Below the pieces are notes generated by a model. It did not search any database. It worked only from the letters and a program-made list of their open reading frames with translations, and had not been told where the DNA came from. Source: a virus. From it: a stretch of DNA of 15,568 nucleotides. Within the stretch, counting starts at the first letter, position 1, and each line of letters opens with the position of its first letter. Shown here in pieces: positions 1,276 to 3,931 of the stretch. The DNA is taken from the UHGV virus genome UHGV-0473420; one strand, 5' to 3'. Made by a program: the position numbers and the translations under genes.

Positions 1276-1431
1276 GTGTCATCCAAGGTTAATTATGAGT
1301 CGCTGGCATCGGTCATGCCGCGTAATGAACAGGAAACAGATGCTGTAGTGGACCCTGTAATCGCTGAAATGAATGCTCGCCTGGAGGCTGAATTTGCAGC
1401 TGAGAATGAACATACCACCCAGGGCGACTAG
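1276..1431 (+). CDS. small acidic hypothetical protein
   Basis: ORF track 1243..1431; likely start GTG at 1276 with GGGAGA SD 6 nt upstream. Acidic product (…ETDAVVDPVIAEMNARLEAEFAAENEH…). No recognisable domain. Confidence 0.4.
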   Translation: MSSKVNYESLASVMPRNEQETDAVVDPVIAEMNARLEAEFAAENEHTTQGD

Positions 1432-2035
1432 GACTGTTTTTTGTGTCGGTAGCGGTCCGTCACTCACTCGTGAGGACTGTGCTGCTATAGAAAAAACTGG
1501 CTGTTCAATCATCGCGGTTAACAATTCCTGGCAGATGTTCGATGACATTTATGCCTTATACGCCGGTGATTTGTCATGGTGGAAGCAATACGGTTCCACC
1601 ATACCGGGAGGGAGGTTCCGCAAAGTGACAGCCAACCTGGCGGCGGCGAAATCATTTTCGTTGGAGTACAGGCGATATTGTGGACCGGCGGAAGGGGTAA
1701 ATAGCGGCGCGCAGGCTATCAGTCTGGCGGCTGAATCAGGGGCTGAAGTAGTTGTATTAGTCGGCTATGACTGTTCTCTGCAAAACGGCCTTCATTGGCA
1801 TGGGGCGCACCCTCAAGCACTACGGAATCCAACGCAGGTATCTATTTCAAAATGGCAACAGCAGTTCCTGGATACCCGCAAAAAACACGCAGATTTACAT
1901 ATTTTGAATGCAAGTAGGAGCAGTGCAATTCAATGTTTCCCAAGAATAAATTTAGAGGCAGTGATCGCGTTATTATCGTCGGCAGTGGCCCAAGCGCCGC
2001 AAACTTTGTTGCGCCACGCGGAGTGCCGATTATAG
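1406..2035 (+). CDS. GSGPS-motif protein, GT42 sialyltransferase / Maf (DUF115)-like, paralog 1 (putative glycosyltransferase)
   Basis: ORF track 1373..2035; start at 1373 or 1406 uncertain, both with weak SD. Motifs VFCVGSGPSL, IIAVNNSW, GVNSGAQAISLAAESGAEVVVLVGYDCS, HWHGAH mirror paralog 2 and, from memory, the N-terminal GNGPSL and central SG...LGY...L.GID motifs of Cst-II-type sialyltransferases and Maf proteins. Confidence 0.55.
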   Translation: MNIPPRATRTVFCVGSGPSLTREDCAAIEKTGCSIIAVNNSWQMFDDIYALYAGDLSWWKQYGSTIPGGRFRKVTANLAAAKSFSLEYRRYCGPAEGVNSGAQAISLAAESGAEVVVLVGYDCSLQNGLHWHGAHPQALRNPTQVSISKWQQQFLDTRKKHADLHILNASRSSAIQCFPRINLEAVIALLSSAVAQAPQTLLRHAECRL

Positions 2036-2559
2036 CGGTCAATGGGGCTATCGACTGGCTTAACCGCGCTTCTTATTTTTTCACCCTTGATCCATCCCCA
2101 GACAATATGCGGCGCGTTGGTCGTGGCCGCCGTCGCCGTGGTGTTTGTTATTGCATGGCACTACCCGATGTTAAAGAACGTGAAGTCAGCGATGGCGTTC
2201 TGTGCTTCCGTCGTGTGGCTGAACGCGGCATGGAGCCAAAAAATACGAATTCTCCCGAGTGGTGGGCGTGGCGCTGGTCCGCACATTTCGGCCTTTGCGA
2301 AGATGAGAATGAAATTGCCAGCGGCAATAGTGCATATGGTGCTCTGAACCTGGCTTTCCATATCGGATTCAAACATGTAGCCCTGGTGGGCGTTGACGCT
2401 ACACAAGAACCACGCGTTCACTCCGGCGGCACGCCAAAAAATCTAAGTCACCTGCCTTTGTTATTCCAGTCTGCGCGTGAACAGATTGACGTTGTTTCAT
2501 GCGGGAAAATGGGAGGTATTCCGCAGATGACTCTTAAAGAATGGCTGAAGAATACATGA
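1933..2559 (+). CDS. GSGPS-motif protein, GT42 sialyltransferase / Maf (DUF115)-like, paralog 2 (putative glycosyltransferase)
   Basis: 208-aa ORF with [56 protein letters not shown]. Clear paralog of the upstream gene. Overlaps it by about 100 nt in another frame; stop TGA overlaps ATG of the downstream phosphatase gene (ATGA). Confidence 0.6.
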
Positions 2560-3233
2560 TGGCACCCACAATTTATCACCGTATCGACGGTACCAAATAC
2601 AGGAATGTCTGGGTTGTTGGTGATCTGCATGGTTGCTACACCAGACTGATGTCCGAACTCCATCGTGTGGATTTTGACCCGGCGCAGGATTTACTGATAT
2701 CGGTCGGCGACCTTATCGATCGCGGTACTGAAAATGTCGAATGTCTGGAACTGTTGCAGATGCCCTGGTTCAGGGCAGTGATGGGGAACCATGAGCGGTT
2801 GATGCTCGATGCGTTAAGTCCTGATGGCAACGTGAATAACTGGCTAATGAATGGTGGACAATGGTTCTTCATGTTGGACACTGATCAGGAAATATTAGCC
2901 AGGGCGCTGGTGGAGCTGGTAAGACGTCTGCCCTATATCATTGAGTTGAACACCGGGCAAGAAACTATCGTTATAGCCCATGCCGACTATCCGGATAATG
3001 AATATCAATTCGGTAAGGAGGTGCCGCTTTTCAACGTTGTCTGGGCGCGCGAGCGTATCAGTGATTCGATGGATGATATTGGTGGCGAAATTTCGGGCGC
3101 AGATCGTTTTATCTTTGGTCACACTCCGGTGAAAAGCCCGAAGACATTCTGGAATCAGCATTATATCGACACTGGTGCCGTATTTTGCGGAAACCTGACA
3201 TTGATGAAAGTGAAAGGTGATGGTGCAGCATGA
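2556..3233 (+). CDS. Ser/Thr protein phosphatase, calcineurin-like metallophosphoesterase (lambda NinI-like)
   Basis: ORF track 2541..3233; likely start ATG 2556 in ATGA overlap. Motifs [26 protein letters not shown] and C-terminal [12 protein letters not shown] match the metallophosphatase signature; close resemblance throughout to lambda NinI as recalled. Confidence 0.85.
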
Positions 3234-3931
3234 AGATTGCTTTAGTTCTTCGCTCTGGTGGTGACTATAACGCTTCCGATGTGCAGTGGCTGGTTAATCA
3301 ACTGCCAAAAGGCTATGAAATTATTTGCCTGACAGACCTGAAGCGTTTACATGTACCTGGCGTCAAAGTTATCCCATTGATCAACCAGTGGCAAAAGTGC
3401 CGTGGCTGGTGGGCGAAAATCGAGTTGTTCCGACCGGATATAACCGATGATCTGTTCTATCTGGATTTGGACACGGTTATTGCCGGTGATATACGCCCAA
3501 TCCTTGAGAATCCACCAACCAGCTTCACCATGCTTAGGGATTTTTACCATCCACAATATCGTGGTAGCGGTGCCCTGTGGATACCAAATAGTGTAAAAGC
3601 GCATATCTGGAGTGCATTCTGGCAAGATCCGGAAGGTTGGATTGCTCGTTGTGTTACTACTGAATGCTGGGGTGATCAGGGGTTTTTGCGGAAGGTTATG
3701 GGTGATGATACACCAGCATTTCAGGATCTGTATCCAGGATGGTTTGTAAGTTACAAGGCCGATGTTGTGGAACCTGGTTCAAAATATGCGAGCGCGCGTT
3801 ACTCCAGGGGGAATGGGACATTACCAAAGGACTGCCGAATAATCTTTTTCCACGGCAAACCGCGGCCTCGCGAAGTGTCAGAGGATTGGCTTCCCCTCAT
3901 TAGCTCGTTTTTTGAGCGAGAATCAGAATAA
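3230..3931 (+). CDS. GT-A fold glycosyltransferase-like protein (GT8/glycogenin-like DxD; putative)
   Basis: 233-aa ORF, ATG in ATGA overlap with phosphatase stop. Hydrophobic strand plus DxD ([10 protein letters not shown]), GDQGFL and near-C-terminal [10 protein letters not shown] resemble retaining GT8-type nucleotide-sugar transferases as recalled. Domain call is tentative. Confidence 0.5.

Follow-up and report, generated by a model that had tools for sequence, protein, structure and literature searches.

What do the four consecutive genes at positions 1373-3931 of the virus genome UHGV-0473420 make for the phage that carries them, and do all four belong together? The sequence analyzed, a stretch of 15,568 nucleotides to which we refer as the window, belongs to a P1-like phage or phage-plasmid, and over bases 1200-4100 it is 98.5% identical to Escherichia phage P1 in a gap-free alignment, while P7, SJ46, RCS47 and others reach 97-98%. 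The four open reading frames match exactly the P1 genes pmgO, pmgP, ppp and pmgQ by annotation transfer from the P1 record AF234172, from which we took gene names and regulatory sites (window coordinates are those of locus L001 minus 1801, with no gaps). Our analysis suggests that pmgO, pmgP and pmgQ form a glycan-assembly cassette that would act in the lytic phase and would probably modify a protein of the virion, a reading to which we give a probability of roughly 0.45, and that ppp is a predicted mobile phosphatase gene inserted into this cassette. A sequence-only reading of the window had proposed an uncharacterised glycosylation pathway at this site; what we describe is an uncharacterised variant of phage-encoded glycosylation, but the genes are catalogued P1 genes that have already been named, annotated and deleted, so the sequence feature itself is not novel. 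New here are the delimitation of three transferases, the insertion of ppp, and the pattern of partners and fusions. The four genes are:

1373..2035, + strand: pmgO, encoding a minimal (~190-residue core) putative glycosyltransferase of the Maf/GT42 fold (open reading frame and P1 annotation)
1933..2559, + strand: pmgP, a distant pmgO paralog with the same nucleotide-binding motifs (open reading frame and P1 annotation)
2541..3233, + strand: ppp, encoding a predicted Ser/Thr metallophosphatase of the lambda-PPase/PrpA-PrpB type (open reading frame and P1 annotation)
3230..3931, + strand: pmgQ, encoding a putative hexosyltransferase of the GT8 fold (GT-A, retaining type; open reading frame and P1 annotation)

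The sequence-only reading had seen these four genes as linked by overlapping stop and start codons, and this holds in part. ATGA is found at 2556-2559 and 3230-3233, but the pmgO/pmgP junction is a 103-nucleotide overlap in the -1 frame, with the pmgP ATG lying within the 'QCFP' codons of pmgO, and the annotated start of ppp is ATG 2541 (a 19-nucleotide overlap with pmgP), with 2556 an in-frame alternative. Phage operons often have overlaps of the ATGA type, which by themselves mean little. The geometry of the pmgO/pmgP overlap is kept in all six P1-like relatives that we checked; pmgO itself has an alternative start at 1406, and its last 25-30 residues are weakly conserved. Database homologs at E<=1e-3 number 206, 327 and 135 for the transferase-like genes, which shows these to be real genes and not chance open reading frames. 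We also observed slippery heptamers of the form X_XXY_YYZ (pmgO frame) within the overlap 1933-2035, namely T_TTC_CCA (1936-1942) and A_AAT_TTA (1948-1954), where a -1 shift would give a PmgO-PmgP fusion resembling the natural fusion P0373. Of 7 P1-like loci, counting the window, 6 have an in-frame heptamer in this overlap and the seventh lacks one, and neither the sequence nor the position of the heptamers is constant; a programmed -1 frameshift is therefore unproven and the heptamers may be due to chance.

PmgO and PmgP are 208-220 residues long and carry the motifs that had been described from the sequence alone, i.e., CVGSGPSL, IIAVNNSW and NSG...LVGYDC in PmgO, and VGSGPSA, IIAVNGA and SGNS...LVGVDA in PmgP. 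The view of the two as tandem paralogs was borne out by alignment of their family profiles with hhalign (probability 97.7%, E 2e-12, 163 columns, ~22% identity); PmgP has an extra insertion of ~40 residues and a different 'lid' segment, and matches PHROG 2111 at 5e-132. Residues S16, P18, S19, N39, D55, S100, L118, G120 and D122 are invariant across both families, with a further invariant H130-W131-H132 in the loop after GYD in PmgO, and an invariant H173 in PmgP. An AlphaFold model of PmgO (predicted local distance difference test, pLDDT, 90) gave both its best structural match and its longest alignment with the Maf flagellin glycosyltransferase (14.2), followed by the archaeal pterin diphosphokinase MptE (11.4) and the sialyltransferase Cst-I (10.7), and with thiamine pyrophosphokinases and mammalian sialyltransferases lower still (8-10). 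Both proteins have a Rossmann-like fold of the Maf/MptE type. Separate PmgO and PmgP profiles found nothing significant among the sequences of the PDB; a merged PmgO+PmgP profile gave sub-threshold matches to Cst-II (0.056), Maf (0.11) and Cst-I (0.63), and also to MptE, and these matches run through the GxGPS and (N/T)SG...G(Y/I)D motifs, with the NSG...GYD segment aligned to the TSG...GID segment of Cst-II. Maf proteins, e.g., that of Magnetospirillum (PDB 5mu5), are ~630 residues long and have additional domains at both termini, in contrast to the cores of ~190 residues that make up PmgO and PmgP; sequence identity between Maf and the P1 protein is 16%. The genes for Maf are linked to those for flagellin and nonulosonic-acid synthesis, whereas the neighbours of pmgO and pmgP were phage genes in every locus examined.

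The third transferase-like protein, PmgQ, contains the DxD motif (YLDLDT) noted previously, and its proposed likeness to GT8 enzymes stands by structure and active-site residues, but not by Pfam: PmgQ has a GT-A fold closest to GT8 structures, and no Pfam model matches it at E<=1, nor any of its 42 family members at E<=0.01, so that the Pfam GT8 model is unmatched. Examination of the family showed K63, D79-L80-D81 and D149-Q150 to be invariant, and G148 and H208-G209 nearly so. This is the pattern of a metal/UDP (uridine diphosphate)-sugar site, i.e., a Lys, the DxD, a GDQ and a C-terminal His within H-x-x-G-x-x-K/R-P-W, and these positions align with the TKL, DAD, GDtG/GDQG and KPW segments of the Skp1 alpha-galactosyltransferase AgtA and glycogenin. 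Compared with known GT8 enzymes (AgtA, glycogenin, GlyE and LgtC), PmgQ is shorter, at ~210-235 residues.

Which of the four genes belong together can be judged from their occurrence in other phages, and we surveyed the neighbourhoods of up to 80 loci per scan, of the ~6,700 PmgO-family cluster representatives at 50% identity that an exhaustive search returned. By this evidence, the cassette is to be delimited as three genes, not four, with O-P-Q or P-Q recurring in unrelated phages. For example, O, P and Q are contiguous in the P1-like loci L058-L060, in Citrobacter phage phiNP and in the Pseudomonas prophage L174; they are rearranged, together with a methyltransferase, in the Alloalcanivorax prophage L176. 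A methyltransferase gene stands between O and P-Q in the metagenomic siphophage L002, a GT4-like gene between O-P and Q in E. coli phages EP_H11 and IME392, and a gap between P and Q in the Xanthomonas jumbo phage Xoo-sp13, which contains all three. P and Q lie ~0.7 kb apart in the jumbo phages XacN1, CM1 and RAS14, are adjacent in the Ochrobactrum locus L175, and occur without ppp in Cronobacter phage JK004. A second scan of IMG/VR with the PmgP profile returned only duplicates of P1-like loci and added no diversity.

Elsewhere, the PmgO homolog is followed by a protein of ~285 residues (PHROG 6804, 'unknown') and an S-adenosylmethionine (SAM)-dependent methyltransferase, as in D3, PAJU2, Eowyn and L003, and in 19 of 26 further IMG/VR loci. 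The profile of this 285-residue partner matches the GT9 adenosine diphosphate (ADP)-heptose heptosyltransferase WaaF at 7.6e-4, and weakly the protein heptosyltransferase TibC; NCBIfam gave no name to PmgO, PmgP, PmgQ or this GT9-like partner. Natural fusions join PmgO to PmgP (P0373), to the GT9-like protein (P0361 and P0484) and to a TylF-type O-methyltransferase (P0478), and an MptE-like domain to an FkbM methyltransferase (L082 and L083). The partners of the PmgO family are thus enzymes that build glycans or methylate sugars, with none from pterin or thiamine metabolism, and this is our main reason to infer that PmgO and PmgP are glycosyltransferases rather than diphosphokinases. A separate case is P0374 (556 residues), where PmgO is fused to a long C-terminal region with Ig-like domains (Big_1 and Big_13); domains of this kind are common on phage surface proteins, and P0374 may represent either the tethering of an enzyme to a structural protein or a gene-calling read-through.

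The phosphatase between pmgP and pmgQ shows a different distribution. Ppp is predicted to be a standard lambda-type Ser/Thr phosphatase, and its description as a bona fide metallophosphatase was correct: it matches PF00149 at 1e-15 (59.1 bits against a cutoff of 21.5) and PHROG 246 (NinI-like) at 2e-113, contains all of the motifs GDLHG, GDLIDRG, GNHE and GHTP, and scores 279 bits with NCBIfam PRK11439, below the equivalog cutoff and without reaching the equivalog cutoffs of PrpA/PrpB. The GenBank record of P1 gives Ppp as 64% identical to lambda PPase (AF234172). These motifs are shared with the NinI-like phosphatase of lambda and with E. coli PrpA and PrpB, but ppp lies outside any nin region, with a putative glycosyltransferase gene on either side. 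Among P1-like relatives of falling similarity, the order pmgM-(N)-O-P-[ppp]-Q-R-S is kept, and ppp is absent between pmgP and pmgQ in the P1-like loci L058, L059 and L060 and in Cronobacter phage JK004. It is likewise missing from every non-P1 cassette in which O, P and Q members persist (phiNP, L002, L174-L176, EP_H11 and the jumbo phages). Phage D6 has ppp (88.9% nucleotide identity) in unrelated surroundings, and lacks pmgO, pmgP and pmgQ. The proposal that the phosphatase is a member of the pathway, within a co-inherited block of four genes, is contradicted by this distribution. Examination of the junction pointed the same way, as the pmgQ start of L059 and L060 is an ATG inside the terminal KEWLKN codons of pmgP (MAKKQLKIALV...), whereas in P1 this ATG serves ppp (MAEEY...) and pmgQ restarts at ATGA; one ATG used by both genes is the mark left by an insertion directly behind the original start codon of pmgQ. 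We therefore class ppp, on its distribution and on this junction, as a predicted independent mobile phosphatase gene inserted at the ancestral pmgP/pmgQ junction, and not as a member of the cassette. Its base composition does not differ noticeably from that of its neighbours.

If the three transferases act together, their genomic position is informative as to when. The cassette was on the late-gene strand in every case that we saw, and at the junctions examined, those of L002 and PAJU2, it shares overlapping start and stop codons with the structural genes on either side. In D3 and L174 the major capsid gene immediately precedes it; in PAJU2, L002, L003 and L175 it is surrounded by head-tail adaptor, head-closure and tail-completion genes; in L092 it is found upstream of the baseplate genes; and in phiNP, L093 and L176 it separates the lysis genes from the terminase gene. 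In EP_H11 and the jumbo phages it lies among small accessory genes and not structural genes. The chromosomal copies that we examined were in prophages, not in lipopolysaccharide (LPS) loci. This placement suggests action during the production of particles, and argues against lysogenic conversion.

Several observations were made beside these cassettes. The PmgO homologs of PAJU2 (ORF010, 2474-3043, in L006, AP009624) and of the Klebsiella jumbo phage Eowyn (4998-5570, in L007) are both labelled 'structural protein' in GenBank, a label for which we found no experimental basis in the literature; if it is real, PmgO-type enzymes may be carried in the virion. A family of proteins is encoded directly behind the portal gene and near PmgO cassettes (L003, 5415-6329; L082, 2227-3438; L083, 2943-3908; L002, 4496-5518; L005, 4248-5252; L063, 5926-7263). 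These proteins combine a conserved C-terminal domain ('GVY...GDGxTYGGxxWIAQ...WRLAVKxGxD') with a variable central repeat region, which in 3 loci is a collagen-like Gly-X-Y tract of 40-68 triplets. They could be head-fibre or decoration proteins, and candidate substrates for glycosylation. As a general acceptor, the collagen-like neighbours were rejected, since 3 loci, or 7 for the wider post-portal family, are too few to generalise from, and no member of the family was seen in the window.

In P1 itself, the timing can be read from the transcription unit, for which the elements flanking the four genes are:

1177..1203, + strand: PpmgN, predicted sigma-70 promoter heading the pmgN-pmgQ unit (P1 annotation transfer)
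1216..1232, - strand: Oppp (formerly Op83), operator of the C1 repressor, window sequence AAATTAATTAGTGTATA (P1 annotation)
1276..1431, + strand: pmgN, small open reading frame of unknown function, first gene of the unit, overlapping the start of pmgO (P1 annotation)
3933..3949, + strand: OpmgRa, C1 operator, ATTGCTCTAATAATTCC (P1 annotation; window sequence read)
3958..3985, + strand: likely intrinsic terminator of the pmgN-pmgQ unit, an 11-bp hairpin with a T-run (RNA folding)
3982..3998, - strand: OpmgRb, C1 operator, inverted relative to OpmgRa and part of the downstream pmgR-pmgS unit (P1 annotation; window sequence read)

From the promoter and Oppp upstream, and the operators and hairpin downstream, we delimit the transcription unit as pmgN-pmgO-pmgP-ppp-pmgQ; by annotation transfer, it is predicted to be C1-repressed, i.e., silent in the lysogen and on in lytic growth. 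PpmgN was not flagged by a simple promoter scan of the window. The hairpin has a folding energy of -13.4 kcal/mol (z -5.7), which 0 of 200 shuffled sequences equalled, and was missed by a consensus terminator scan because its A/T pairs use up the T-run. It sits exactly between the inverted operators OpmgRa and OpmgRb, so that the terminator of pmgN-pmgQ overlaps the repressor-controlled promoter region of pmgR-pmgS.

Taken as a lytic-phase glycan-assembly cassette, pmgO-pmgP-pmgQ might work as follows. PmgO and PmgP would be minimal Maf/sialyltransferase-like transferases that use, by analogy, an ulosonic acid activated with cytidine monophosphate (CMP); PmgQ would be a metal-dependent, retaining GT8 transferase that adds a hexose from a UDP-sugar; and the three would jointly build or extend a short glycan. 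To our knowledge, the sole CMP-ulosonic acid donor available in E. coli K-12 is CMP-Kdo (3-deoxy-D-manno-octulosonic acid), and as a working hypothesis, drawn from the preferences of the enzyme families, the donors would be CMP-Kdo for PmgO/PmgP and a UDP-hexose for PmgQ. The acceptor is above all what we infer: the likeliest candidate would be a head or head-tail protein of the virion, which would receive the glycan in the cytoplasm, either ahead of assembly or while it proceeds. The closest functional precedent is found in mycobacteriophages, whose own glycosyltransferases reportedly glycosylate their virions. There, as here, the glycosyltransferase genes lie inside the capsid-tail operon and are dispensable for growth; in that system modification of capsid and tail-tube proteins has been demonstrated, whereas glycosylation by the P1 cassette is proposed from its genes, and the enzyme families differ and the hosts are actinobacterial. 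We found no equivalent report in the literature for phages of Gram-negative bacteria.

A number of results weigh against this proposal. PmgO and PmgP score 23.4 and 20.9 bits with PF01973 (MptE-like/Maf, DUF115), below the Pfam gathering threshold of 34.6 bits, which is passed only by tandem-fused relatives (41-45 bits); at E<=0.01 the model matches 34 of 40 PmgO-family members (best 3e-8) and 36 of 43 PmgP-family members (best 9e-7). Neither protein has a match to the GT42 (CST-I) Pfam model at E<=1, although the Campylobacter GT42 enzymes (CAZy) Cst-I and Cst-II share with them the GxGPS and (T/N)SG...G(I/Y)D motifs. The alignment of the merged profile with Cst-II by hhalign (sequence 100% identical to 1RO7; probability 12%) spans 28 columns and maps no catalytic residue of PmgO/PmgP onto Cst-II His188. 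The GT42/Maf-like assignment made from the sequence alone is therefore upheld by fold, with PmgO and PmgP not members of these families by sequence. The position of the cassette within late operons varies, as is typical of accessory genes, which makes its synteny with head genes suggestive only. In P1, single in-frame deletions of pmgO, pmgP, pmgQ and ppp gave no plaque or antirestriction defect (Gonzales et al. 2022), and genome-wide CRISPR interference (CRISPRi) scored all four genes as non-essential (PMC10695390). We know of no report of glycosylated P1 virions; glycans are unmentioned in the P1 virion proteome paper and in two P1 cryo-electron microscopy papers, and our analysis identified no acceptor for pmgOPQ. 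PmgO, PmgP, Ppp and PmgQ are not among the 27 proteins of the P1 virion proteome (Gonzales et al. 2022), and we found no functional study of pmgO, pmgP or pmgQ in the literature.

The same enzymes could act on other targets, and of these the host surface is the one that deserves most weight, although we regard it as unlikely. The cassette would then modify the LPS core or lipooligosaccharide of the host late in infection, e.g., to mask receptors against loss of particles to debris, or for superinfection exclusion; GT8, GT9 and sialyl/Kdo-transferase-like enzymes are indeed the toolkit of the LPS core, and all of the hosts are Gram-negative. Set against this are the repression of the unit by C1 in P1 and its embedding elsewhere within late structural operons with overlapping codons, which, unlike the case of classical seroconversion genes, would allow no expression from a prophage, so that only LPS made late could be altered. 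The carrier phages are moreover unrelated and differ in their receptors, which are the LPS core for P1, the O-antigen for D3, and the flagellum and pilus for phiCbK-like phages. No NCBIfam model of an LPS transferase matches PmgO, PmgP or PmgQ, and no predicted membrane anchor is visible in their sequences. Slightly less probable again is glycosylation of a non-structural phage or host protein, or of a small molecule, for host takeover or anti-defence. Several of the GT8 structures closest to PmgQ modify cytoplasmic proteins (Skp1 alpha-GalT, GlyE and glycogenin), the genes are non-essential in K-12, and the cassettes of EP_H11 and the jumbo phages keep the company of small accessory genes; the repeated location within head, connector and baseplate blocks of unrelated siphophages and myophages speaks against this reading, and no PADLOC or anti-defence link came to light, though no search aimed at one was made.

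Rivals that question the chemistry fare worse. PmgO and PmgP might be diphosphotransferases like MptE and the thiamine pyrophosphokinases, both of which appear among the structural matches, or other nucleotide-dependent enzymes; we consider this improbable, as Maf exceeds MptE in both score and alignment length, as the N-terminal GxGPS and the (T/N)SG...G(I/Y)D motifs match Cst-II, and as glycosyltransferases and sugar-type O-methyltransferases, but in no case enzymes of pterin or thiamine metabolism, occur as partners and in fusions. Least credible is a four-enzyme pathway with the phosphatase as an integral step and hypermodified DNA or RNA as its product, an idea raised by the sequence-only reading for which we found no support. 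In its favour, P1 has the four genes side by side with their codons overlapping, and phage systems for DNA glycosylation exist. Most occurrences of the cassette lack ppp, however, and D6 has ppp alone; the window contains no gene for making hydroxymethyl-pyrimidine or another modifiable base; the DNA of P1 and D3 is handled as ordinary DNA; and the cassette associates with late structural genes, not replication genes.

Existing labels derived from RefSeq and PHROG name PmgO 'alpha-2,3-sialyltransferase', Ppp a metallophosphoesterase or NinI-like phosphatase, and PmgQ 'glycosyltransferase', and the P7 record names the homologs hdmA-D ('head morphogenesis') because they resemble orf7 of Pseudomonas phage D3, which lies in its cluster of head genes. 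As E. coli K-12 is not known to make CMP-sialic acid, the label 'sialyltransferase' is almost certainly wrong as to the sugar, and virion modification by this cassette, if true, would correct a misleading name that is spreading through phage annotations. Through its partners and fusions, a very large family of uncharacterised proteins becomes linked to the assembly of glycans within the late operons of phages. If the acceptor is a virion protein, classical coliphages and Pseudomonas phages would join the actinobacteriophages as phages that glycosylate themselves, and this would bear on antibody recognition of therapeutic phages, on virion stability, and on the use of P1 particles for transduction and delivery. 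More tentatively, and with clearly less confidence than we have in the proposal for P1, we suggest that self-glycosylation of virions (head, neck or fibre proteins) may be widespread and unrecognised in phages of Gram-negative bacteria, through minimal Maf-like enzymes combined with GT8-, GT9- or GT4-like enzymes and sugar O-methyltransferases that would draw on the sugar-nucleotide pools of the host LPS core (CMP-Kdo, ADP-heptose and UDP-hexose). P1 would be a genetically tractable model for such a system, and deletion mutants exist.

The genes around the cassette gave some further observations. Upstream of pmgO lie pmgL, pmgM and pmgN, and downstream of pmgQ lie pmgR, pmgS and pap. The first gene of the unit, pmgN, starts with GTG at 1276, has GGGAGA 7 nucleotides upstream, has no Pfam match and is confined to close P1 relatives. 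CRISPRi on pmgN (1243/1276-1431) lowered P1 plating ~100-fold and was scored 'essential', whereas an in-frame deletion was reported as non-essential; since knock-downs of pmgO, pmgP, ppp and pmgQ had no effect, polarity alone cannot explain this discrepancy (PMC10695390). The product of pmgM (631-1209) has a weak match to the VRR-NUC nuclease domain (E 3e-4, below cutoff), and that of pap (5568-6074) matches the haloacid dehalogenase (HAD) phosphatase domain of polynucleotide kinase-phosphatase (PF25109, 43 bits, above cutoff), so that the name 'acid phosphatase' is probably wrong; in phages that are not P1-like, neither gene accompanies the cassette. The right two-thirds of the window (~6100-15568) are mosaic, with the best P1-like record covering only ~50% of 5500-15568, and pieces of the latter are common to hundreds of lambdoid and Shiga toxin (Stx) phages, with annotations that include Ea22-like and DUF551. 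Within this region we identified three sets of paralogous open reading frames: 7983-8603 and 8901-9569, which share the N-terminus 'IDYQxLREAAExAT'; 10083-10478, 10688-11137 and 11345-12283, which share the motif 'LA(A/S)LE(A/V)EP(V/I)'; and 14017-14382 and 14382-14687, which share the C-terminal motif 'FxCxDHxxWxDELDxSFPYFxE...CPxCR'.

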